Shown here: positions 8,990-31,235 of the stretch, one piece after another
How the letters are laid out: each line of letters begins with the position of its first letter
Numbering within the stretch: the stretch's first letter is position 1
From: Bacillota bacterium
Lineage (GTDB): Bacteria; Armatimonadota; HRBIN16
Direction: 5' to 3'
Length of the DNA stretch: 64,000 bases
NCBI GenBank assembly: GCA_023511455.1
Contig: JAIMBJ010000003.1
Span: 185,093 to 249,092, forward strand
Position numbers and translations under genes: made by a program
Notes under the pieces: generated by a model
Database searches by the model: none
Told to the model about the DNA's origin: nothing
Seen by the model: only the letters and a program-made list of their open reading frames with translations

Positions 8990-10441
8990 TCACAGGATAT
9001 AGCGGCTCAAATCCTCGCTGCGCAGCACGTCTGCCAGCCGCTCGCGCACATATTCAGCGGTGATGGTGACCGTTTGTCCAGCCAGTTCGCTGGCGCGGAA
9101 GGAGATGTCCTCCAGCACACGCTCCATCACCGTGTGCAATCGGCGTGCGCCGATGTTCTCGCTGGTGCTGTTCACCTGCGCGGCGATGGCGGCGATTTCA
9201 CGGATAGCGTCGTCAGTAAACTCCAGTTCCACTCCCTCTGTTGCCAGCAGGGCTTTGTACTGTTTCACCAGGGCGTTCTGCGGCTCGGTCAGGATGCGCA
9301 CGAAATCCTGCTCGCTCAGGCTGTCGAGTTCCACACGGATGGGCAGACGTCCCTGAAGCTCGGGGATGAGGTCACTGGGTTTGGAGACATGGAACGCTCC
9401 TGCGGCAATGAACAGGATATGGTTCGTGCGCACCGCGCCAAACTTGGTCATCACCGTCGAGCCTTCGATGATGGGCAGCAGGTCACGCTGTACCCCTTCG
9501 CGCGACACGTCGGGACCGTAGCCCTGCTCGCGTCCGGCGATTTTATCCAGTTCATCGATGAAGATAATACCGCTCTCCTCCGCACGGCGGATGGCTTCGC
9601 TCACGACCTGCTCACGGTCAATGAGCTCGCGGGCAGCCTCCTGCGTCAGTATCTGCTTTGCCTCGCGGATGGTTACCTTGGTGGTGCGCCTCCGTCCACC
9701 CATCATCCCGCGCAGCATATCGGGCAGGTCCAGACCCATCTCTTCCATGCCCTGCGGACCGAACACCTGCACAAACGGCATAGGCGGGCCGGACTGCTCC
9801 ACCTCTATCTCTATCTTTTCATCGTCCATCGTGCCGCTGCGCACCCGTTCCATCAGCTTCTCACGCATCCGGCGTTCGCGCTCGCGCCGCTCCTTTGCCG
9901 CCAGGGACGTGTCCTCCTCTTCCTCCTTATACTCCTCCTCGTAGAGCGCACGGAACAGACGTTCGAATGGAGTTCCGGACTGGACACTGCGTCGCGAGCG
10001 GCGAGGCATGAGCCTGTCCACGATTCGTTCGATGGCTATCTCTTCCGCACGGGCACGCACCTCTTCTATCTTTTCGCTCTCCACCATCCGTACAGCCGTC
10101 TGGACGAGGTCGCGTATCATCGAGTCCACATCCCGCCCGACGTACCCCACCTCGGTGAACTTGGTGGCTTCTACCTTCAGGAACGGAGCCTTGACCAGCT
10201 GGGCGATGCGCCTCGCGATTTCCGTCTTACCAACGCCGGTAGGACCAATCATCAGGATGTTTTTGGGGATAACCTCTTCGCGCAGGTCCTCAGACAGGCG
10301 TTTGCGCCGATAGCGGTTGCGCAGGGCGATGGCAACGGCGCGTTTTGCCTTCTGTTGCCCGATGATGTATTTGTCCAGTTCCTCCACAATCCGCTGGGGC
10401 GTCAAATCCTCTTCCATGTTGAACTCCTCCACGATGTTCAT
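8990..10441 (-). CDS. hslU: ATP-dependent protease ATPase subunit HslU
   Basis: 483 aa. Walker [14 protein letters not shown] and the typical HslU N-terminus [17 protein letters not shown]. Confidence 0.9.
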
Positions 10442-10971
10442 TCGATGCTCTCACACTGTACTTTGTCGTTGGTATAGATGCACAGCTCCGCCGCAATGCG
10501 CATGGATTCCAGTGCGATTTCCTTTGCGGACAGAGAGGTGTGCCGCATCAGTGCACGTGCTGCAGCTGCAGCGTACGCCCCTCCACTGCCGATAGCCAGC
10601 ACGTGATCATCGGGTTCAATCACGTTGCCATCACCCGAAATGAGCAGCAGGTCGTCGCGGTCTGCGACAATCATCATGGCTTCCAGGCGGCGCAGGATTC
10701 GGTCGGTGCGCCACTCTTTCGCAAACTCCACCGCCGCCCGGCGCAGGTTGCCATTCGTGGCTTCCAGCTTGGCTTCGAAGCGGTCTGCCAGTGCCTGCGC
10801 GTCGGCGACTGCCCCGGCGAATCCAGCCAGTACGCGGTCGTGATACATGCGGCGGATTTTACGCGCGGTATGTTTCAACACGGTCTGGTCGTAAGTTACC
10901 TGTCCGTCGGCGGCGACGGCTACCTGCCCATTGCGCCGAACGGCGATGACGGTGGTATGATGCCAGGTCAT
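10438..10971 (-). CDS. hslV: ATP-dependent protease subunit HslV
   Basis: 177 aa. The N-terminal [10 protein letters not shown] provides the catalytic Thr after Met removal. There is a 4-bp overlap with hslU. Confidence 0.9.
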
Positions 10972-11085
10972 TCCGCTACTCCTGCGGTGAGTTTCCCTCC
11001 TTTAGTATAGCATATTACAGGGGGTGAATGTGACCTCCGGGTACGAAACCCTCGTCGCACGCAAGGAGATTAACCCGCGTTGGGG

Positions 11086-11113
11086 GGAGGGTCACGAGGG
11101 AGCGTGACCCTCC
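11086..11113 (-). terminator. Perfect 11-bp GC-rich hairpin (GGAGGGTCACG-agggag-CGTGACCCTCC) just after the URO-D gene and ahead of hslVU
   Basis: The stem is read directly from the sequence. No U-tract follows, so it may be a terminator or an RNA-processing element in a high-GC genome. Confidence 0.4.
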
Positions 11114-11119
11114 AGACCG

Positions 11120-12259
11120 CTATCTGTGCAGCGTTGCTTTCACCTCTTCCCAGTTCGGTGGGTCGGGAATACCAAACATCTTGCGCTTCGTCTCCAGATA
11201 GAACAGGTAGTTCTCGTAAGTGACGTCGGGCGGGCATCGATGGTCTACGTGCGGGATGTATCCGCCCTCTTCTACGAGGGGTTTCAAGCGTTCCAGTTCT
11301 CTGACAATCGCCTCTTTGCCCGCTATGAGTTGCGTCTTGTCCACACCACCCATCAAAAGCACCGACTTGCCGAACTTCTTCCGAATCAACACGGGGTCAG
11401 AACCGCCCCGCACTTCCAGTGGAAACATCACGTTCACCCCGCCCGCCAGCCAGTGCTCCACCAGCTGCAGGATGTTACCGTCGCAGTCCACATACACGAT
11501 GTCGATACCGAAGCGTTCGCGGAGAGCGTCCGTGATGCGTTTGTAGCGGGGCGTCATCCACTGGCGGAACAGTTTCGGCGAGATGATGGGCCCCTTGTTG
11601 AACGCCATATCCTCCCAGAACGAGGCGTAGTCCAGTTCGACATCGGCGGGGATTTTGTGGATAGCGGTCAATGCCATCTGCGTGAGATGCTCCATTATCT
11701 CTTCCACGAGGTCGGGCTGGTCTACACAGGCATAAGAGACCCCCTCAAAACCCATCCAGTCGCGAATCCAGCCAAACAGGCTTCCGCAGTACACCCCCAG
11801 AGGATAGTCGCGGTTTGCCACTGATTGCTTCCACTGCTCCCAGTCGGCAGGATAGCGACGCGGGTCATCGGGGTCCAGGCGTTTTTTGAACTCCAGCCAG
11901 TCCTCCCGGCTTTTGATGGGGAACTCGAGGTAGTGGGGGATGGTGGATGTGCCGTCCTTGTACACGATGCTTTTCACGCCTGTCCCGTCGATCTGGAGGC
12001 GGTATCGGTCGGTCTCTTCGAGCACTTTGGCTTCGAAGGGCGGTATCAATCCCAGGTTGATCGGCACGCCTGCGCGCGGTGCGAAACCGAAGAACTGATT
12101 GGCCTTCCACTCTTCGTCCACCCATTCAGGCAATCCCTGTTTGTGCCACTCGGCGTATGTCTCCGTCCAGTAACCGAACTCCTCATCGGGCACGTGGTCT
12201 ACTGGCTCGTAGTGAAAGGTCCTCAGCCAGCGTTCGCGATGCGTTAAAGTTTCTCCCAT
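11120..12259 (-). CDS. Uroporphyrinogen decarboxylase (URO-D) family protein, MtaA/CmuA-like methyltransferase fold
   Basis: 379 aa. URO-D-like TIM-barrel similarity (…VYVDCDGNILQLVEHWLAGGVNVMFPLE…HVDHRCPPDV). Confidence 0.65.
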   Translation of the reverse strand: MGETLTHRERWLRTFHYEPVDHVPDEEFGYWTETYAEWHKQGLPEWVDEEWKANQFFGFAPRAGVPINLGLIPPFEAKVLEETDRYRLQIDGTGVKSIVYKDGTSTIPHYLEFPIKSREDWLEFKKRLDPDDPRRYPADWEQWKQSVANRDYPLGVYCGSLFGWIRDWMGFEGVSYACVDQPDLVEEIMEHLTQMALTAIHKIPADVELDYASFWEDMAFNKGPIISPKLFRQWMTPRYKRITDALRERFGIDIVYVDCDGNILQLVEHWLAGGVNVMFPLEVRGGSDPVLIRKKFGKSVLLMGGVDKTQLIAGKEAIVRELERLKPLVEEGGYIPHVDHRCPPDVTYENYLFYLETKRKMFGIPDPPNWEEVKATLHR

Positions 12260-12372
12260 CGGCTATGGTCTCCCTAAGGCACGTTGGTGTGAATCATTTC
12301 TGGAAGGATGTAGGCAAGTCCTGCGGAAGGGTGTTCTTGGCTCACTCGAAGGTTCGCCCTCCAAATGAGGAA

Positions 12373-13587
12373 TCAACGCCATCTGTAAGGCGAGGCTTCC
12401 ACTGGGCTGTAAACTCGTCCTCCGGATGAAGCAGCTTTGCGTCGCAAACGACCAACCTCTTCCGCGATGACCTCCGCCGCGAAATCTACCTCGTCTGGCG
12501 TGTTGCCCCTACCCAGACTGAGGCGAACGGTGCTCATCGCCTTCGCTTCGTCCATCCCCAGCGCAAGCAGCACGTGCGACGGCTCAATAGACCCCGCACT
12601 GCATGCCGCCCCTGCGGAGGCAGCAACCCCACGCCGATCCAGAGCGATCAAGAGGCTCTCTGCCGAGATACCCTCAAAGGTCACGCTGAGGATGCCCGGA
12701 TGGCACTGCTGAGGGTGTCCATTCACCCGTATATCCGGCACCAAATCCTGCAGGCGTGTGCGCAGCCTATCGCGCAGTGCCCTGACCTTTTGCCATGCCG
12801 TCGCGTACCGGGTACGGCTCAGCTCCACTGCCCTGGCGAAACCAGCAATGCCGGGCACGTTCTCCGTGCCCGCACGCAGTTCGCGCTCCTGCGCTCCACC
12901 TACCAGAAGAGGCGCAATCTTGACCCCTCCACGGATATACAGTGCCCCAACGCCTTTCGGACCGTATAACTTGTGCGCTGAAACGGAGAGCATGTCCACG
13001 CCCAATTTCTCCACATCTATCTCCAGCAATCCAAAGGTTTGCACCGCGTCACAGTGCAGCCACACCCCCGCCTCGCGGCAGATGGCGGCGATTTCGCGGA
13101 TGGGCTGCAGGGTGCCGATTTCGTTGTTCGCGTGCATGACGCTGACCAGCCATGTCTCCTCACGCAGCGCATGACGCAGGTCATCGGGGTTCACCATACC
13201 CGTCGTGTCCACTGGCAGATAGGTGACGTCCCAACCGTCCTGCTGCAGTCGCTGGCAGGCGTGCAGTACCGCATGGTGTTCAATGGCAGTGGTGATGAGA
13301 TGCCTTTTATGTGGAGGAGCCACCCGCGCGGCCCCGAAAATCGCCATGTTGTTCGACTCGGTGCCGCCAGACGTGAAGAAAACCTCCGCGTCAAGACAGC
13401 CCAGAGCCTGCGACACGGTCGCCCGTGCCTCATCCAGCAGGTCGCGCGCCTTACGCCCGAACAGGTGCAGGCTGGAGGCGTTGCCCCAGCACTCCGCCAT
13501 TGCCTGTGCGACAGTTTCGCGCACTTCGGGGTCTATCGGTGTAGTCGCAGCGTGGTCTAAGTATACTGTTCGCATCTGCTTCACCAT
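12373..13587 (-). CDS. Cysteine desulfurase (NifS/IscS family)
   Basis: YLDHAATTP N-terminus, SAHKLYGPKGVGALY PLP-lysine region and catalytic Cys in GAACSAGS. Confidence 0.85.
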   Translation of the reverse strand: MVKQMRTVYLDHAATTPIDPEVRETVAQAMAECWGNASSLHLFGRKARDLLDEARATVSQALGCLDAEVFFTSGGTESNNMAIFGAARVAPPHKRHLITTAIEHHAVLHACQRLQQDGWDVTYLPVDTTGMVNPDDLRHALREETWLVSVMHANNEIGTLQPIREIAAICREAGVWLHCDAVQTFGLLEIDVEKLGVDMLSVSAHKLYGPKGVGALYIRGGVKIAPLLVGGAQERELRAGTENVPGIAGFARAVELSRTRYATAWQKVRALRDRLRTRLQDLVPDIRVNGHPQQCHPGILSVTFEGISAESLLIALDRRGVAASAGAACSAGSIEPSHVLLALGMDEAKAMSTVRLSLGRGNTPDEVDFAAEVIAEEVGRLRRKAASSGGRVYSPVEASPYRWR

Positions 13588-23813: not shown

Positions 23814-24644
23814 TCAAAAACCGAAAGCCAGATTGTCCAGAATGTATTTTGCCCGCGCCTCGCCAACCTCCTGATAGATTTCCAGCAGCTCTTCGTACAC
23901 ACCTTCTGTGCCCACCAGACTCCAGAACTCGTTGCCAATGAGTACTGCATCATCAAAAGGCATATAGTTTCTGGCGTATGTCCAGCGGTACTCTTCCCGA
24001 GTGCTTCCGTATGGATTGTATGCCATTGCGAAGTATGCAGATACCTGCGGAGCACGGTTCCCTGTCAGCAGATGTATTCGCAGTAGCCTCTGGGTAACCT
24101 CGAGGCATTGTCCCTTATTCGGCATCGGTGATTTAATTTCAAAGAACATTTGTGATCCGTCGTGCCGCTGCACCCACAGGTCGGCGACAACCTGCAGAGG
24201 TATCAGGTCATCCTGACGCTGTGACGCCAGTACGGTGTCCACCATGCCGTCCATCCGTGGTCGTTCTGAGGAAGCGTGTTCGAAAAGGCCTACCTGCTGC
24301 TCTATGGCTTGCAGGGAAGACTGGCTCACCTTGCCCTTGACGCGATGCCCCCGGCGTGCGTCCTTGTGAAATTGTAAAGCAATAAGACGAGCGCACTCCT
24401 CGAAAGTGGAGCCAAGTCGTGTGCTGAAACTGCGCTCAAACGCGCTGAGGCGTATGAGTTCGGCAGGTATGATCGCCTGATGAAACGGCTTCAATCTTCC
24501 CTCTGCCGACTGTTGTCTCAGATACTCGCGTACTGCTATCGAGGACGGCAGGAGTCGCTGCCGAGTCTCGTCCACCACATTAGTGATGAACGCCTCTAAG
24601 TAGCCCTGTATCCGGGCACGGGTTGTATCAGTGAGGACAGCCAT
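23814..24644 (-). CDS. Putative type II restriction endonuclease (family not recognised)
   Basis: 276 aa. It starts 3 nt after the stop of the upstream DNA methyltransferase (TAAcagATG). GC is about 50% against about 65% in the flanks. It matches no housekeeping family I recognise. Confidence 0.4.
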   Translation of the reverse strand: MAVLTDTTRARIQGYLEAFITNVVDETRQRLLPSSIAVREYLRQQSAEGRLKPFHQAIIPAELIRLSAFERSFSTRLGSTFEECARLIALQFHKDARRGHRVKGKVSQSSLQAIEQQVGLFEHASSERPRMDGMVDTVLASQRQDDLIPLQVVADLWVQRHDGSQMFFEIKSPMPNKGQCLEVTQRLLRIHLLTGNRAPQVSAYFAMAYNPYGSTREEYRWTYARNYMPFDDAVLIGNEFWSLVGTEGVYEELLEIYQEVGEARAKYILDNLAFGF

Positions 24645-24647
24645 CTG

Positions 24648-25856
24648 TTATGGGCTACGCCAGATAAAGATGGACTCGTAGAACTCGCTGGAGCGCCTTC
24701 CTGTTCGGCGGTTCACGTGCCGATGTAACACCGCTTCTACTCGCACCCCGACCATCTCCGCAATGCGACCATAAAGGTTATGTCGATCGTTTGCCACCAC
24801 AACGAGCGGCGCTCCTGATGGGGTACATTTTAGGATGCGCTGAAAAACCGTTGCGATATCCTGAACGTACTGCTGCCTTGCCTTTTCGGACGCCCCGTTT
24901 GCCGCGGCGCCAATCTCGCAGTCGCGCAGGTCGCGCAGCCCGAGCAGGTGATAGGCATAGGCGTGCTGTTCATGATAGTCAATCAATCCCACATAGGGGG
25001 GACTGGTAATTACTCCGTCTACAGGAGGAAACTGTGCCGTACGGCTATCCGCGTGGGAGATGACCACTTCCGCATCGGTGCGTACCAGGGCGTATTGCCG
25101 AACACGGTGGATCGTATCGATACTATACCGTTTGAGAAACTTAAAGGCTTCGAGGGTGGGCTCACAGACGCGACGATGCTTGTGACACCAGTAGGGAGCC
25201 GTCACTGGCTGCTTCGGAAAGTCCAGGTCATAATGCGTGGTGAGCCTTGCGGAGCGTGCTGAGCGCGACAGAATAACGTATAACAAATCTTTATATTCAT
25301 AGTCGCCCTGCTTTACAATATCACGATAGGTTAACAGCTCACGAAGTGCCTGCGGGGCGTACCACCGTTGGAGGTATTCACTGGTGGAAAACCCGTCCGT
25401 GTCGTAGATAGTGTCCTGCTGTTCCATCATCAAGGAAAGCTGGGTTGCATCCTGGGAACATGTTCGGCGATGTACTTTCTCGAGCACGTCCAGCACTTCC
25501 TTTTGCATCTGTTCGAGATGGTATCGGGTGGTTTTTGCCCGGCAGAGCATGACATTAAACGCGGAAACGTCGTAACCAACAGCATGGATACCCAGCTCAT
25601 TCGCCTGCACGAGAGTGGTACCCGAGCCGCAAAAAGGGTCCATCACAGTTTGTCCCGCACGGAAGAACTTCCGCAGAAACACTTCCACCAGCTGGGGGAT
25701 AAACTTTCCCAGATAGGGATGCAAGCGGTGCACGTGCTTGGTGCGGAGATGCTCCGGCAGGTCGCGTTCCCGCCAGTTCAAGTTGAGTGTTTCCAGCGGG
25801 GTTTCTGGCGTTACCGTCTCCGGACGAGTTGGCTCCGTATCCATCTGATGAATCAC
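24648..25856 (-). CDS. DNA amino-methyltransferase (N6-adenine or N4-cytosine, alpha class)
   Basis: AdoMet motif I DPFCGSGTT near the N-terminus and catalytic motif IV SPPY near the C-terminus. The order I-TRD-IV indicates alpha class. GC is low. Confidence 0.8.
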   Translation of the reverse strand: MIHQMDTEPTRPETVTPETPLETLNLNWRERDLPEHLRTKHVHRLHPYLGKFIPQLVEVFLRKFFRAGQTVMDPFCGSGTTLVQANELGIHAVGYDVSAFNVMLCRAKTTRYHLEQMQKEVLDVLEKVHRRTCSQDATQLSLMMEQQDTIYDTDGFSTSEYLQRWYAPQALRELLTYRDIVKQGDYEYKDLLYVILSRSARSARLTTHYDLDFPKQPVTAPYWCHKHRRVCEPTLEAFKFLKRYSIDTIHRVRQYALVRTDAEVVISHADSRTAQFPPVDGVITSPPYVGLIDYHEQHAYAYHLLGLRDLRDCEIGAAANGASEKARQQYVQDIATVFQRILKCTPSGAPLVVVANDRHNLYGRIAEMVGVRVEAVLHRHVNRRTGRRSSEFYESIFIWRSP

Positions 25857-26081: not shown

Positions 26082-26186
26082 TTACGAGTTCCGCTCGATG
26101 GTACTGCACGCGAACTGTGAGAACGGTCCGCTGGTACACTTGCCGCAGGCGAGGGCGGTAGTCTCGAAAATGGTTTCGGTCATCAT
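26082..26186 (-). CDS. Speculative 34-aa Cys-containing small ORF (MMTETIFETTALACGKCTSGPFSQFACSTIERNS)
   Basis: Found by hand translation of the 400-bp gap downstream of the PqqD-like gene. It is co-directional with the operon. There is no convincing RBS, so it may be a chance ORF. Confidence 0.15.
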   Translation of the reverse strand: MMTETIFETTALACGKCTSGPFSQFACSTIERNS

Positions 26187-26256
26187 CTGCGGTTTTTGAT
26201 AAGCTTTGCGCGCTTTTCGGGAAGGCTGCTCTGTCTGTTTGCCATGCTGTTCCATG

Positions 26257-26604
26257 CTAGGTCACCCCCATTGCTTCTATTTCGTCTTCTGAGGTTGGGC
26301 GGTCCGACAGGAAAGCGATGCCCTTTTCGACCATTTCTTGCGCAAATGCCAGTACGTCGGGTAATGCCTCTTCGGGCGCGATTTCGTATGTTTGGCTCAG
26401 CTCCTGCGTGATCTGCCTCAGCGTGCGGCTGCCGTCCGCCATGCGCCAAATTTCGGTAGCCACCTCGTTCAGGTTGTGCAGCTCGCGCTCCTGCGGTGAG
26501 ATGACCACTGCCTCTCCCTCGATGATACGCCACGCCAGAAACGGCGAGCGCACCAGGTAGTGCTCTGGCGTCACATTCGGTGTCGTCTCTGCCTGCGGCT
26601 CCAT
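26257..26604 (-). CDS. PqqD-family protein (RiPP recognition element-like peptide-binding domain)
   Basis: TPEHYLVRSPFLAWRIIEGEAVVISPQERELHNLNEVATEIWRMADGSRTLRQITQELSQTYEIAPEEALPDVLAFAQEMVEKGIAFL matches the PqqD/RRE pattern (…LN.tg..iW.l.DG.rt..eI…dv..f…L). The start is assigned to MEPQAE. The longer tracker ORF is a GC-driven extension. Confidence 0.6.
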   Translation of the reverse strand: MEPQAETTPNVTPEHYLVRSPFLAWRIIEGEAVVISPQERELHNLNEVATEIWRMADGSRTLRQITQELSQTYEIAPEEALPDVLAFAQEMVEKGIAFLSDRPTSEDEIEAMGVT

Positions 26605-27035
26605 CTCCACACCTTTCGCAATCCGTGCATCACCTGGGGCATCCGTGTCTGCAGCAGTCCATAGAGCCACCATTTCCCACTGTACGGCGAGAACCGCTTG
26701 TTGCCTCGCCATACCGTGCGCACCGAACCCAGAACCTGTTCGCGCAGTACCTTTTCTTCGTCCTGCAGGGTGTCGCCGCGCAGGGTGATATGCCCGTTCT
26801 CTACGGACACCACGCGGTGGCAGCGCACTCCCCAGGGCGTGTTGACAAGTACAATCATGCCCGGCTTTATCTCCAGCGAAGGCGTAATTTCCAGCACATC
26901 CCCTCCCTGAACCACGGGCGACATGCTTTCGCCCTGTGCCTTCAGCCATACGGTTTCGCCTGTCTGGAGACGTGCTATCAGCTGAACGGTCTCCTCGCTC
27001 AACGGGCGGAATTCGGTTTCCGAGCCTTTCGCCAT
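26571..27035 (-). CDS. Soluble S24/S26-family serine peptidase (LexA/signal-peptidase-I-like fold)
   Basis: AQGESMSPVVQGGDVLEI…KPGMIVLVNTPWGVRCHRVVSVENGHITLRGDTL shows the Ser/Lys-dyad fold. There is no TM helix. Its 3' end overlaps the PqqD start. Confidence 0.55.
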   Translation of the reverse strand: MAKGSETEFRPLSEETVQLIARLQTGETVWLKAQGESMSPVVQGGDVLEITPSLEIKPGMIVLVNTPWGVRCHRVVSVENGHITLRGDTLQDEEKVLREQVLGSVRTVWRGNKRFSPYSGKWWLYGLLQTRMPQVMHGLRKVWRWSRRQRRHRM

Positions 27036-28210
27036 TGCCACATCGCCTCGCTTAACGGCACAATCTGTGCGCCGGGGTAGTAGGCTTGACAAATCTCCTC
27101 CGCTTTCTGTCCTGATTGGGCTCTCCCCGCCGCCCCCCACTGGCACAACCCATAGCCATGTCCTGAGCCACTGCCTTCGAAAACGATGGTGTTACCCTTG
27201 TCGATCCGCACGCTGAACAGGGTAGACGGCAGCAATAACCGACTGCGCAGTCGGGTGCCGCTAACATCCCGCGTTTGCTCGCCGCAGCGAATGCGCAGCG
27301 TGACCACCCGTCCGCTTGCGTCGGTTTGCGCGATTTGCACGTCTGCTTCACTGTTCGGCATGTCCTGCAAAGAATCCTTCTCACCCGCCGCCTGCCATAC
27401 CTCCAGAAAGGTAAAAATTAGCGACCAGTAGTGCCCCGGATTGGCAAGACAGTAGTCTCTGCCCGAACTGTCGCGGTCGGGCGGGGGAGTACTGACACCG
27501 TTGGCGGGGGCAGGCTGTCCGCCACAGTCGGCAGTGTAAACACCGTCTACTGAAGACCCGTCCTTGACCAGGATAAGACCCGCGCTATTCTGCACCGCCA
27601 GCGTCGTGCTTTCTTTCTCGGCGGTAACGCCTCCGTAGACCTGACAGTGTGTGCTATCGCACACGTCTGCCCCGTCCGCTTCGTGCTTGTGACGGTTGCG
27701 TACGGTCCAGCTGCGTGCGGCAATAGCCTGCGCTTTTAACGCCTCTGACGGAAAGCTGGAAGGCATTTCCAGTGGAACAACGCCCAGCAGGTAATCCTCC
27801 AGTGGCAGTGTATTCACCACCTGCAGTTTGCCTTTACGTACGCGCAGAGTCAGTTTGCCCCGGTAGCTGCTTCCGGATTTGTCCTGTGCTCTGGAAAGGC
27901 TCAACGGCGCGTCACCTTCTATAGTCCACTCCTCCGCCTGCAGGCTTTTGTCCCTTAAGCGCAGGGTCACCAGTGTCGCGTCGCATTCTACTCTGACCGT
28001 TTCTCCTGCAGCCATGCGATGCGGTGCTCCTGCGCCGGTGATGCGCCATTCTGATTGGCTGGTGATGTACAGGGGGGTGCTTTGCCAGCGTGTCAGCCAC
28101 ACGCGCACCGGGGGATTGAAGGGTTGCTGCGCCTGCAACGCCGGGCAAAGGAGAAAAAAGAGTAAGTAAAGCGTTGACAGGAGGAACCACTTGCAGTAAG
28201 GGTGTTTCAT
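26999..28210 (-). CDS. SpoIID/LytB domain protein (secreted)
   Basis: Signal peptide MKHPYCKWFLLSTLYLLFFLLCPALQA. SpoIID hallmark ALKAQAIAARSW and CDSTHCQVYGG. There is an ATGA overlap with the upstream acetyltransferase gene. Confidence 0.75.
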   Translation of the reverse strand: MKHPYCKWFLLSTLYLLFFLLCPALQAQQPFNPPVRVWLTRWQSTPLYITSQSEWRITGAGAPHRMAAGETVRVECDATLVTLRLRDKSLQAEEWTIEGDAPLSLSRAQDKSGSSYRGKLTLRVRKGKLQVVNTLPLEDYLLGVVPLEMPSSFPSEALKAQAIAARSWTVRNRHKHEADGADVCDSTHCQVYGGVTAEKESTTLAVQNSAGLILVKDGSSVDGVYTADCGGQPAPANGVSTPPPDRDSSGRDYCLANPGHYWSLIFTFLEVWQAAGEKDSLQDMPNSEADVQIAQTDASGRVVTLRIRCGEQTRDVSGTRLRSRLLLPSTLFSVRIDKGNTIVFEGSGSGHGYGLCQWGAAGRAQSGQKAEEICQAYYPGAQIVPLSEAMWQWRKARKPNSAR

Positions 28211-29010
28211 CGTTGCCAGCTCCGTGAGAACCGTTCGCGTGCCCTGTCGGTAAGCAGCCACAGCGGGTCCTTTTGCAGGACAGGCAGTAACACCTCCCGC
28301 ATCGCTCTCGCGTCAATCAACCGGCACAAAGCGTTACCCACCATTTCCTCCCGCATCGCGCCAGCCTCACGCAGTGGTTCATCCACCTTCGTGAAGTCGC
28401 GTTCCCAGCCCCACAGGTGCAGGCGGTTGCGCACCGCGATTTCGCGACCCTCCGCGTCTATGACAATGCCGTCCGTCCATTCGTCCTGCAGGTGGTATGG
28501 CACCTCTGCCAGCTCTTCCAGCGCGTGCAGGCTGGTATTGCTTTGCTGAGTGCAACCCAGTAAAAGGATGTACCCGCCGCTGTCCATCAGCTTCACATAC
28601 GGGCTGCCCTCGCCGCAGGGGGTCTGGCAATGTTCGTGTCCTTGCGTATAAAAGTCGGCACGTGCGCCCAGTGCGGTTACGGAGTGGGTGGGATGCAGAC
28701 TGCGCCGGACGCCCTCGCGACGGCGGAAAGCTTCGGGGATGATTCCAATCCATTTGGGGCAGGGGGTGCGGCGCACGTCCATACGCGGCGGGTTCTGGGG
28801 GGAATCCTGTGGTGAGCCGTTGAGTGCTGGCATCAGTATCGTGCCAGCGGGTGATACCGCCGCAAGCAGAGCATCGATGACGGTGTCCGCACCGCCTTCC
28901 ACCCAGCCGATGCTGCTAAGCGAGGAGTGAACGAGCACATCCATCCCGCGCGGCAGGCCGAGACGGCGCAGCTCCTGCGTGAGGGTCTCTTTGTCGATGC
29001 CTATTTGCAT
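28207..29010 (-). CDS. Aminoglycoside N3-acetyltransferase (AAC(3)) family protein
   Basis: VLVHSSLSSIGWVEGGADTVIDALL is the AAC(3) signature. The start is set at MQIGIDK, about 22 aa before VHSSL, as in characterised AAC(3) enzymes. Confidence 0.7.
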   Translation of the reverse strand: MQIGIDKETLTQELRRLGLPRGMDVLVHSSLSSIGWVEGGADTVIDALLAAVSPAGTILMPALNGSPQDSPQNPPRMDVRRTPCPKWIGIIPEAFRRREGVRRSLHPTHSVTALGARADFYTQGHEHCQTPCGEGSPYVKLMDSGGYILLLGCTQQSNTSLHALEELAEVPYHLQDEWTDGIVIDAEGREIAVRNRLHLWGWERDFTKVDEPLREAGAMREEMVGNALCRLIDARAMREVLLPVLQKDPLWLLTDRARERFSRSWQR

Positions 29011-29113
29011 CCGATACTCCTTGTATGCGTCTTGCAGCTCACCGACTGCAACTTCGACGTTGGGTAGGGCTGAGCCTGCAAAGGTTTTGTCAGAAGCATG
29101 CCGAAGCAGTGGC

Positions 29114-30103
29114 TCAGGCGATAGCATGGCTCATCGGCTCGCGATTCCCGCTTTCCTGCCCCTCAACTAATGGACGGTGCTCCGGCTGTTGAATTATCGT
29201 CCGACCATCTTCCAGCCGCAGCCAGGTTCGGAAGTCGCGCACGCCTTCTTGCAGTTCAATGACTCTGGCACCGCACGGGAACCCCTCTTTGCCATAACCG
29301 CCGTAGCCGCTGCATCTGCCGTAGCAAAGGCGGATGCCGTACAGTGTGCCCCAGAAGTCGTTGATATGGTCATGCCCGACGAACGTACCAATGACCTCAC
29401 CCACCTCATGCAGTGCAGCAAAGAACCCCGTGTTGATTTTGGGGGCGCAGACGTCCTCGTGTTTCTGTCCGTAGCAGACCTGCGTGCGCCATACCTCATC
29501 ATATTCGGGCAGCGGAATGTGAAAGAAGGCAAGCGCAGGAACACGCAATCGCTCCTCGTCGGTGATGCTCCATCGCCTGCGCACCTGCCGGGCAGTGCGT
29601 TCGTACCATGCAATCTGGTCACGGGTAATCCAGCCCCACCCGCCGATGTCGGTGGTGGCGTAACTGCTGGAATCGATGCCCCACAGGAACGCGGCAGGAC
29701 GCTCGCCTTTGCGGTTCATCACGGGCAGGACGTAATTGCCAACGCCTGTGATGTTTCGCGGACCGCGTTTGCCCACAAAGTGGGCACAGCTCTCCATCAC
29801 CCGCCAGAGTTCTTCGCGGCGCAGAGTGCTTTCGTCGTCGTGGTTGCCCATCACTGCTGTCCACGATAACCCCCTCTCCTCGATGGGGTGTACCAGTTGT
29901 CGCATTCCTCTATCGGCATCTTTGCAATCGGCTCCACCCAGCATGTCACCCGTCAGGAATACCAGGTCGGGTTGTTCGCTGTCCAGCACCGTTTCCATGA
30001 GCTGGCGTGTGAGGCGATCGCGCTCGTCGAAGTTTGTCCAGTGAGTATCGGTCAACTGTACGATTTTGAAGGTTTCTGTTCGGAAACGCAACGGCTCGGG
30101 CAT
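29114..30103 (-). CDS. Calcineurin-like metallophosphoesterase
   Basis: LTDTHW…LVFLTGDM…GNHD motifs. A GGAGGAG RBS lies 5 nt before the chosen ATG. Confidence 0.75.
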   Translation of the reverse strand: MPEPLRFRTETFKIVQLTDTHWTNFDERDRLTRQLMETVLDSEQPDLVFLTGDMLGGADCKDADRGMRQLVHPIEERGLSWTAVMGNHDDESTLRREELWRVMESCAHFVGKRGPRNITGVGNYVLPVMNRKGERPAAFLWGIDSSSYATTDIGGWGWITRDQIAWYERTARQVRRRWSITDEERLRVPALAFFHIPLPEYDEVWRTQVCYGQKHEDVCAPKINTGFFAALHEVGEVIGTFVGHDHINDFWGTLYGIRLCYGRCSGYGGYGKEGFPCGARVIELQEGVRDFRTWLRLEDGRTIIQQPEHRPLVEGQESGNREPMSHAIA

Positions 30104-30198: not shown

Positions 30199-30918
30199 AT
30201 GGGCAAGCCTAATTTCTGGCATAAGACCATTCATGTCGCGCTGGTATGGGCGGCAGCGCAGGTGAGTCTCTTCTTTGTGCTTACGCGGCATTCCCCCCGA
30301 GACAACGCGGTGGCGATGATGGCAGGTGGTCTGTTCCTGCTGTGGTGTGTGCTGGGTGGATGGCTGATGTGGCGATATCGGCATCGATTCGCCGCTCTCG
30401 TACAGCGGTGGCGCTGGCGATGGCAGGTGAAATTCGTATTGCTATGCACCCTGTTTGCGCTGGTGGAGGAGGCGGTTACCACCAGCATGACCAACCTCGC
30501 GCCGGTGTTTGGGGTGCGCATTGGTGAAGCGTATATCACCGCTTCCACCAACTATCTGGACGTGGTGCTGGGGCACAGTGTGGTGGTGTTTGTGCCGATG
30601 TTTGTGTGCTGGGCGTGGATGTTGTCGCGCTGGGCGTTCGCGCCGAGGCAGGTCATGGTGCTGTTTGGCTGCACCGGCACGCTGGCGGAGGCGGGTTCTT
30701 TCGGCTGGCACAACCTGCTGGGATGGGGGTTCTGGTTAATGGTGTATGGTCTGATGGTCTATCTGCCCGCGTGTGCGGTGAAGGTGCATAGGGGTAGCCA
30801 GCCTCCGCGCTGGAAGCACTGCGTGATGGCGGTGCTGTTGCCGTTCCTGTTCGCCGCGCCGGTGGCAGGCATCGTGGGCTGGCTGCATCCGGTGAAGGTG
30901 CATTTTGCGGTGCAATAA
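30199..30918 (+). CDS. Polytopic membrane protein (hypothetical)
   Basis: 239 aa with about six hydrophobic helices. Family not recognised. Confidence 0.45.
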   Translation: MGKPNFWHKTIHVALVWAAAQVSLFFVLTRHSPRDNAVAMMAGGLFLLWCVLGGWLMWRYRHRFAALVQRWRWRWQVKFVLLCTLFALVEEAVTTSMTNLAPVFGVRIGEAYITASTNYLDVVLGHSVVVFVPMFVCWAWMLSRWAFAPRQVMVLFGCTGTLAEAGSFGWHNLLGWGFWLMVYGLMVYLPACAVKVHRGSQPPRWKHCVMAVLLPFLFAAPVAGIVGWLHPVKVHFAVQ

Positions 30919-31148: not shown

Positions 31149-31235
31149 TGGTGCCGACGGGGGGACTCGAACCCCCAAGCCCGTTCGGGCACTAGACCCT
31201 GAACCTAGCGTGTTTACCAATTTCACCACGTCGGC
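31149..31235 (-). tRNA. tRNA-Leu (anticodon CAG), long variable arm
   Basis: The minus strand reads GCCGACGTGGTGAAATTGGTAAACACGCTAGGTTCAGGGTCTAGTGCCCGAACGGGCTTGGGGGTTCGAGTCCCCCCGTCGGCACCA. It has a 7-bp acceptor stem, D-arm, anticodon loop TTCAGGG, class-II variable arm, TTCGAGT T-loop and encoded CCA. Confidence 0.85.

Follow-up and report, generated by a model that had tools for sequence, protein, structure and literature searches.

A block of six minus-strand genes lies at positions 26,082 to 30,103 of the window, as we call the 64-kb stretch of Armatimonadota DNA (contig JAIMBJ010000003.1, positions 185,093 to 249,092) analyzed here. From upstream to downstream, the genes encode a metallophosphoesterase, a homologue of AAC(3) acetyltransferases, a SpoIID/LytB-domain protein, a small signal peptidase-like protein of the S24 peptidase family, a PqqD-family protein, and a 57-residue peptide (Table 1). 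The last three, referred to below as the trio, are our main subject. Judging from the sequences of these parts and of their relatives, we consider it about 80% probable that the trio constitutes a leader peptide-processing module that depends on a recognition element of the type found in pathways for peptides that are made by ribosomes and modified after translation (RiPPs). The block had attracted attention in an original prediction made from the DNA letters alone. Pfam profile searches bore out every domain identity proposed there, and genes called independently on public contigs of identical sequence confirmed the common orientation and the start/stop overlaps, which measure 4 nt (ATGA) between the AAC(3) and SpoIID genes, 37 nt between the 3' end of the SpoIID gene and the start of the peptidase gene, and 34 nt between the peptidase and PqqD genes. 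The prediction was also right that the block ends at an adjoining restriction-modification (R-M) cassette. It counted seven open reading frames (ORFs) where we count six genes, and the head-to-tail linkage that it described holds from the AAC(3) gene to the PqqD gene but not for the phosphoesterase gene, which is separated from the AAC(3) gene by 103 nt. We drew operon boundaries from the overlaps alone because a scan for promoters and terminators yielded nothing above shuffled sequences and folding of the spacer between the peptide and methylase genes gave z = -0.55.

The 57-codon ORF (MEQHGKQTEQPSRKARKAYQKPQMMTETIFETTALACGKCTSGPFSQFACSTIERNS) begins with an ATG that is preceded by a Shine-Dalgarno-like GGGGGTGA, and its junction with the PqqD gene reads TAG-C-ATG. 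What had been described as a 34-codon ORF in an otherwise empty 400-bp gap is the C-terminal portion of this ORF, read from the internal Met24; the true intergenic distance from the peptide gene to the methylase gene is 225 bp. Met24 is not the true start, because it is replaced by Ile in several relatives and because the in-frame RKPYRKPQ that lies upstream of it is conserved. The exact 57-residue protein is called on 13 public contigs. Comparison of 23 clusters of homologues revealed that Y19, K21, P22, E27, FETTALACGKC, and SGPFSQFAC are invariant; residues 1 to about 15 vary, whereas little or nothing changes in the stretches R-K-(P/A)-Y-x-K-P-Q-(M/I)-x-(T/S)-E-x-I and FETTALACGKC-x-SGPFSQFAC. 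When loci with PqqD identities of 70-83% are compared over the last 29 codons of the ORF, 10-17 codons carry synonymous changes and none carries a non-synonymous one. Because these codons differ only synonymously, we conclude that the ORF is translated and is under strong purifying selection. Neither Pfam nor NCBIfam has a model for the peptide family, and Rfam contains no RNA family that matches at the gene.

A precedent for such an arrangement comes from the linear polyphosphorylated peptide (LPP) clusters of Bacillota, which encode LppA, LppB, and LppS (Popov et al., Nat Commun 2026, PMC13381572). LPP precursors carry the motif YxxPxVLxHQxIxFET. LppS, a Ser/His/Asp peptidase that resembles signal peptidase I (SpI), cuts after T-1 of FET only in the presence of the discrete RiPP recognition element (RRE) LppB; RRE binding depends on YxxP, F-3, E-2, and T-1 are important for cleavage, and modification comes before efficient cleavage. 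The authors describe SpI-like peptidases as new to RiPP pathways and LPPs as restricted to Bacillota (PMC13381572). In the window peptide, the corresponding stretch reads Y19-Q-K-P-Q-M-M-T-E-T-I-F-E-T32, a YxxPx(hydrophobic) motif followed by IFET, with no HQ.

To compare the recognition proteins, the window PqqD was aligned without gaps (HMMER) to the crystal chain of LppB (9x8z_B) and to the published list of its contacts, using a fitted numbering offset of 18 that accommodates all 14 named residues. Eight of the 14 LppB residues that contact the leader are identical in the window protein, and five of the other six are conservative replacements. The identical residues are L45, N46, V48, Y73, E74, D83, F87, and M91, which correspond to L32, N33, V35, Y60, E61, D70, F74, and M78 of LppB. 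The contact positions are conserved across 31 members of the clade (Y73 and D83 in 31/31) and largely conserved in 85 PqqD proteins from the radical S-adenosylmethionine (SAM) cassettes described below. NCBIfam returned ScmD and lasso peptide PqqD as best matches, both under cutoff; the ScmD-type equivalog model TIGR04248 reached 36.7 bits, where its cutoff is 100. We conclude that the gene probably encodes a discrete PqqD-family RRE with a predicted Tyr-binding Asp and a predicted Pro-sandwiching Phe.

An exhaustive HMMER search recovered 996 relatives of the window peptidase at E<1e-3, among which a single cluster exceeds 50% identity and the others range from 26 to 45%. G35, S37, M38, P40, and G87 never vary across 60 aligned homologues; conservation is 90% or more for H73, R74, and D88, and no Lys is conserved that could serve as a general base. 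The candidate catalytic residues are Ser37 (in GESMSP), His73 (in CHRVV), and an acidic residue, either Asp88 (in RGD) or Asp92/Glu93. The pattern GxSMxP...HRV...RGD reads as the signature of Ser/His signal peptidases of the archaeal and endoplasmic reticulum type, unlike the Ser/Lys arrangement of LexA. NCBIfam gave weak matches to archaeal signal peptidase I (sigpep_I_arch) and to the protease of nickel superoxide dismutase (sod_Ni_protease), and a search of the peptidase sequence against the PDB returned noise only. An AlphaFold2 model with a predicted local distance difference test score of 92.1 consists of a helix at the N-terminus (residues 14-24), a beta core, and, at the C-terminus, two amphipathic helices, and its top Foldseek matches are LexA, UmuD', human SEC11A/C, SpsB, and SipA. 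The modelled structure thus confirms a LexA/signal peptidase fold. The window peptidase has no N-terminal membrane anchor. These features indicate that the gene likely encodes a soluble, archaeal-type Ser/His SpI-like enzyme that is predicted to act as a leader peptidase.

Table 1. Positions in the window of the six genes of the block, the predicted parts of the peptide, and the adjoining R-M genes.
Feature	Positions	Strand	Basis or content
Metallophos protein (calcineurin-like metallophosphoesterase), 329 aa	29114-30103	-	Pfam, 39.9 bits
Antibiotic_NAT/AAC(3) homologue, 267 aa	28207-29010	-	Pfam PF02522, 204 bits
SpoIID/LytB-domain protein, 403 aa	26999-28210	-	Pfam, 103 bits; TIGR02669, 182.5 bits, above cutoff
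Peptidase_S24 protein (signal-peptidase-I-like), 154 aa	26571-27035	-	Pfam, 36.3 bits
PqqD-family protein, 115 aa	26257-26604	-	Pfam PF05402, 62.2 bits
Precursor peptide gene, 57 aa	26082-26255	-	ATG 1 nt past the PqqD stop; homologue conservation
Predicted leader, residues 1-32	26160-26255	-	Candidate RRE motif Y19-x-K21-P22-x-M24; candidate peptidase motif F30-E31-T32
Predicted core TALACGKCTSGPFSQFACSTIERNS, residues 33-57	26085-26159	-	Cys37, Cys40, Cys50, C-terminal Ser
N6_N4 DNA methylase	24648-25856	-	Pfam
TdeIII-type endonuclease	23814-24644	-	Pfam

The close relatives of the window are metagenome-assembled genomes (MAGs) of hot-spring Armatimonadota/Chthonomonadetes. The series SpoIID-peptidase-PqqD-peptide is constant among them (loci L001-L003, L007-L012, L021, L075, and L218), and the same four-gene order is found in eight sequence-distinct loci of the window type (the window itself, L001, L007, L009, L011, L021, L075, and L218); PqqD identity falls to about 64-70% across the wider clade. 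The small ORF, whose conservation the original prediction had singled out as a check on its proposal, is kept in all orthologous loci. The SpoIID gene, the product of which carries an N-terminal signal-like hydrophobic segment, adjoins and overlaps the peptidase gene in every window-type locus and, alone among the non-RiPP genes, accompanies the trio throughout. Because its 3' end overlaps the start of the peptidase gene, the trio is presumably co-transcribed with this peptidoglycan-remodelling gene.

The remaining neighbors are less constant. The AAC(3) gene is present upstream of the SpoIID gene in L001, L003, L007, L009, L011, L021, and L075 and absent from L218, which makes it a frequent, non-obligatory neighbor. 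All NCBIfam models for AAC(3) resistance enzymes score the protein under cutoff (AAC_3, 137.5 vs 270; AAC_3_IV, 130.5 vs 420), so that by these cutoffs it would belong only to the Pfam fold family and not to the resistance enzymes. In L007 and L009, opposite-strand genes and a distance of 2-4 kb part the phosphoesterase gene from the rest of the block; this gene is context, outside the conserved unit. The R-M pair sits between the peptide gene and cheB in the window, whereas in L007, L009, and L011 cheB directly follows the peptide gene and the R-M site is empty. The R-M cassette is therefore an insertion, and type II R-M cassettes have repeatedly entered the stretch that separates the peptide gene from cheB. 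At the same site, L218 carries a different R-M pair (a HEAT-methylase and a CfrBI-type enzyme) plus an ADP-ribosylglycohydrolase (10231-12539). Beyond the phosphoesterase gene, the window contains a divergent ORF of 239 residues (30199-30918, plus strand) with several hydrophobic segments and no Pfam or NCBIfam match; it is present in L001 and not at this position in L011. The sole tRNA gene in the window, which is also its sole Rfam match, is a tRNA-Leu(CAG) at 31149-31235 on the minus strand.

Outside this clade, the parts of the trio occur in larger gene sets. We looked up four distant homologues of the peptidase (26-33% identity), and each has a PqqD gene no more than two genes away, which agrees with the co-occurrence that the original prediction had proposed to check. 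In three of these loci (L013, L014, and L016), the genes are arranged as [small ORF]-peptidase-ScmC(PF27840)-PqqD-radical SAM/SPASM, and the fourth (L015) has the order PqqD-peptidase-ABC transporter. An upstream ORF of 59-63 residues is homologous to the window peptide in three of the four (for example, ...KKKYQKPAFRHERVFETMALACGKVSRVEGQCHFGTRKNS). The proteins designated ScmC also match HprK-related kinase models. We scanned one genome per GTDB species with a degenerate DNA pattern that we wrote by hand to represent FETxALxCGK and obtained at least 120 matching tiles; all tile counts given here are among the matches listed. An in-frame family peptide is encoded in 119 of the 120 listed tiles, and about 35 chance matches were estimated from the information content of the pattern. 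The listed tiles are mostly from Acidobacteriota/Terriglobia, and others are from Elusimicrobia, Armatimonadota, Methylomirabilota, Planctomycetes, and a few MAGs labelled Proteobacteria. Among them, 83 hold the peptidase, 73 hold both the peptidase and PqqD, and 61 hold the peptidase, PqqD, a ScmC-like protein, and a radical SAM/SPASM protein. No partner gene was detected in 33/120 tiles (9/27 of those with a central peptide); such orphan precursors include pairs from the same MAG, such as L022 and L035. The architecture of the window is found in only two listed tiles (L021 and L075).

The family peptides in this set (n=127) resemble the window peptide at its key positions. The Tyr and the Pro of the leader motif are each present in 123/125, the Glu at -3 in 118, and the C-terminal Ser in 123/127; two Cys are found in 110 of the peptides and three in 16. 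The three-Cys core CGKCxxGPxxQxxC is common to the window and to cassettes of Elusimicrobia, which have the order ScmC-PqqD-peptide-peptidase-rSAM (rSAM, radical SAM) and contain ScmC-like and rSAM/SPASM genes. The FETxALxCGK family seems to supply the precursor that had been missing from cassettes like those of SynChlorMet (SCM), for which, to our knowledge, the precursor is listed as unidentified. Our searches of the literature on SynChlorMet, on ScmC/D/E, and on RiPPs that combine HprK and SPASM proteins found nothing relevant, and we found no paper that describes the FETxALxCGK family or cassettes of peptidase, HprK-like protein, RRE, and rSAM; the RRE-Finder papers make no mention of S24/S26 partners.

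Several variations on this theme were seen. The consensus of the precursor family (L017-L136), mainly from Acidobacteriota/Terriglobia and Elusimicrobia, is KKPYxKPxFxxExVFETxALxCGK...C....S, and the usual gene order is peptide-peptidase-ScmC/HprK-like-PqqD-rSAM/SPASM. A long subtype, FETSALACGKT..PPAGSHH...GVGFGPGGTS..Y.YAGLCGNWVTLAS, has a core of about 70 residues (L035 666-1894; L020; L022; L046); L035 contains three tandem copies upstream of its cassette, and the MAG has one more copy, not linked to these, on a different contig (L022). In a sister precursor family, PY(E/A)xPxxxFxPLKxEERLMxCxK...C...S, the FETxAL element is replaced. Members lie upstream of PqqD-rSAM-ScmC-peptidase cassettes (L171 4504-4752, L144 855-1025, L176 4537-4707, and L137 4071-4397); L171 and the window-type locus L009 share the assembly GCA_900174565.1. 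The first ORFs of L184, L186, L207, and L214 match both the rSAM/SPASM and the ScmC-like profiles and are apparent fusions of a maturase with a kinase-like protein. Orphan three-Cys genes without an adjacent peptidase or PqqD gene occur in other Armatimonadota (L132 1926-2090, L217 962-1123, and L080 1414-1719); that of L132 lies just upstream of FtsI-MurE, and that of L217 is flanked by genes for an HTH/sigma70_r4 protein and a HAMP-SpoIIE phosphatase. Fusions of the peptidase to a RimI-like GNAT acetyltransferase were found in 4 of 10 homologues scanned, which had been picked mostly for unusual length from 150 listed. Metagenomes contain many such fusions (loci L137-L216; examples are L153 4177-5118 and L142 2375-3442), and among loci of at least 4 kb, 38/42 lie within PqqD-rSAM-ScmC cassettes. 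The presence of these fusions within cassettes suggests that leader cleavage is coupled to N-acetylation there.

The modifying enzymes of these larger systems are not found near the trio. Profile hidden Markov models built from cassette proteins detected no rSAM/SPASM or ScmC/HprK-like ORF in the 64-kb window and no rSAM/SPASM or ScmC-like ORF within ±8-10 kb in sequence-distinct window-type loci, and no plausible ORF of the window contains the radical SAM motif CxxxCxxC. Gene tables of L001, L007, L009, L011, and L218 list no NTP (nucleoside triphosphate)-transferase, MsbA-like exporter, or kinase within ±8-10 kb of the trio. Because these genes were not found nearby, and because position 3 of the predicted core is Leu, the locus is neither an LPP cluster nor an SCM-type cassette; it keeps only the half devoted to recognition and cleavage. 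The statement in the original prediction that this is not a recognisable RiPP class is now outdated, since the trio fits the logic of RRE-dependent, SpI-type leader peptidases described for LPPs in May 2026 and is homologous to the front end of the radical SAM/SPASM cassettes. Its suggestion of a peptide-processing unit survives for the PqqD protein, the soluble protease of signal peptidase fold, and the Cys-containing small ORF.

The homology of the three parts, their conserved linkage, and the constraint on the peptide and on the leader-binding and catalytic residues point to a model for which we infer the binding mode and the cleavage site by homology. PqqD would bind Y19-Q-K-P22-Q-M24 of the precursor as an added beta-strand, with the Tyr held by Asp83 and the Pro sandwiched between Val48 and Phe87. 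In this position, PqqD would present the junction between I-F-E-T32 and T33 to the soluble Ser37/His73 enzyme. The peptidase would then cut off the 32-residue leader and release the 25-residue TALACGKCTSGPFSQFACSTIERNS. Five observations weigh against this model. The window peptidase scores 19.3 bits with sigpep_I_arch, under the NCBIfam cutoff of 51.85, although its cassette homologues do pass that cutoff (58.6 bits). In LPP leaders, YxxP and FET lie two residues farther apart than in the window peptide. The position of Ser3 of the LPP core, the phospho-acceptor, is occupied by Leu35. No exporter, kinase, or radical SAM gene was found around the trio over the distances given above. Finally, A-L-A|C, four residues downstream and in keeping with the classical AxA rule for signal peptidases, is an alternative predicted cut site.

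If the trio does process the peptide, the question is what becomes of the core. It is a real possibility, although we lean against it, that the pathway is split, with an HprK/ScmC-like protein and a radical SAM/SPASM maturase encoded elsewhere in the genome that modify the peptide before the leader is removed locally. Such an arrangement would fit the Elusimicrobia cassettes, in which the same three-Cys core subtype is accompanied by both enzymes, and the retention in the clade of a 100% conserved core with the family-typical C-terminal Ser. It would also fit the many orphan precursors among the listed tiles and the precedence of modification over efficient cleavage in LPPs. The absence of candidate ORFs from the window and from the surroundings of the tested relatives argues against it, as does the fact that in other cassettes the RRE and the peptidase accompany the maturase, not the precursor alone.

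It is tempting to speculate that the trio is instead a processing-only RRE system tied to SpoIID, in which the 25-residue Cys peptide is otherwise unmodified (or is disulfide-bonded or N-acetylated) and the genome encodes no class-defining modifying enzyme; we regard this as doubtful. If it were true, the peptide would be co-expressed with a SpoIID-type peptidoglycan hydrolase and tied to it in function, perhaps through regulation or inhibition or as a signal at the cell envelope, and an RRE would have been recruited for propeptide processing outside natural product chemistry.

Modification by the neighboring AAC(3)-type enzyme, which would acetylate Lys39 or the new N-terminus of the released peptide in a system of leader peptidase and N-acetyltransferase, is improbable. 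The GNAT fusions within cassettes lend the idea some appeal, and the AAC(3) gene overlaps the SpoIID gene through its ATGA and is located upstream of the trio in almost every window-type lineage seen. The AAC(3) fold (PF02522), however, differs from GNAT, the gene is never found beside other cassettes, and in L218 SpoIID-peptidase-PqqD-peptide is intact without it; its adjacency could stem from an older AAC(3)-SpoIID pair. One possibility raised in the original prediction, that all six genes from phosphoesterase to peptide form one peptide-processing or cell-wall module, fares still worse and is quite unlikely. The genes are co-directional and overlap from AAC(3) to PqqD, but the phosphoesterase gene is unlinked in L007 and L009, which largely refutes its membership, the AAC(3) gene is missing from L218, and neither of these genes nor the SpoIID gene accompanies the peptide family outside the clade. 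That the trio is the functionless, decaying remnant of a full cassette, as the lack of maturase and kinase-like genes at the locus might suggest, can practically be dismissed, given three intact ORFs of constant length in about 30 homologue clusters, a peptide core that changes only synonymously, and conserved catalytic and leader-binding residues.

Returning to the trio as an RRE-dependent processing module, its logic extends through Armatimonadota, Acidobacteriota, Elusimicrobia, Methylomirabilota, Planctomycetes, and a few MAGs labelled Proteobacteria, and is attached to the large precursor family FETxALxCGK...C...S of SCM-like radical SAM cassettes. Because the Armatimonadota version keeps the recognition and cleavage half alone and does so under strong purifying selection, it would offer a natural minimal system in which to study RRE-dependent proteolysis and the role of a peptide beside a cell-wall hydrolase.

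Comparison with known systems places the trio more precisely. The B1 and B2 proteins of lasso peptide pathways provide a general likeness, in that a discrete RRE binds a leader motif of the YxxPxL type and brings the precursor to a leader peptidase that is a separate protein. The window peptidase, however, has a serine signal peptidase fold, whereas B2 is a transglutaminase-like cysteine protease; moreover, the window has no lasso cyclase. A lasso peptide was rejected on these grounds: the gene tables contain no B2 protease or Asn-synthetase-like cyclase, and, counted from either candidate cut, positions 7-9 of the core TALACGKCTSG contain neither Asp nor Glu. A sactipeptide or ranthipeptide (SCIFF) was rejected because no radical SAM gene lies at the locus. 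SodX and SipW resemble the window peptidase as dedicated small S26-family peptidases that remove an N-terminal extension from one specific substrate, and the weak match to sod_Ni_protease is in line with this. Those enzymes differ in having no RRE partner, and the substrate in the window is a small peptide rather than a folded protein. A nickel superoxide dismutase hook was likewise rejected, as the core lacks the HCxxPC motif.

The SynChlorMet system (TIGR04248-04251: ScmC, ScmD, ScmE, and ScmF) also has parts in common with the window. ScmD is the best NCBIfam match of the window PqqD, and homologues of the peptidase, PqqD, and peptide occur together with ScmC-like (PF27840, HprK-related) and rSAM/SPASM proteins in the 61 tiles mentioned above, with the Elusimicrobia cassettes encoding the same CGKCxxGPxxQxxC core subtype. 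The window differs in that it has no ScmC-like (PF27840/TIGR04249) or radical SAM/SPASM gene and in its order of peptidase-PqqD-peptide, which contrasts with peptide-peptidase-ScmC-PqqD-rSAM in the cassettes. Neither the window proteins nor the tested relatives reach the SCM equivalog cutoffs.

The LPP system shares several details with the trio. Both encode a discrete PqqD-type RRE beside a SipW/archaeal-type Ser/His(/Asp) signal peptidase-like protein that acts, or in the window is predicted to act, as leader peptidase. Both leaders have a YxxPx(V/L/M)-type motif followed by (I)xFET, after the T-1 of which LPP cleavage occurs, and the window PqqD has the same residues as the LppB pocket at N33, V35, Y60, E61, D70, F74, and M78. 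The differences lie in the absence of an HprK-like kinase, of an NTP-transferase, and of an MsbA-like exporter, in the Leu at core position 3 that replaces the phosphorylated Ser, and in the shorter YxxP-FET spacing. The core in the window is 25 residues long, contains Cys, and is invariant in its clade, whereas LPP cores are variable and 35-200 residues long. LPPs are reported only from Bacillota, in capsule loci, whereas the window trio belongs to Armatimonadota and to a presumed SpoIID operon. We view the trio as a pared-down representative of a large superfamily of cassettes, most of them uncharacterised, of which the LPP system, studied by experiment, is the Bacillota branch. The principle has been known since May 2026 for Bacillota only, and the locus described here is a reduced variant of it from another phylum, with an invariant Cys-containing core and an attachment to SpoIID.

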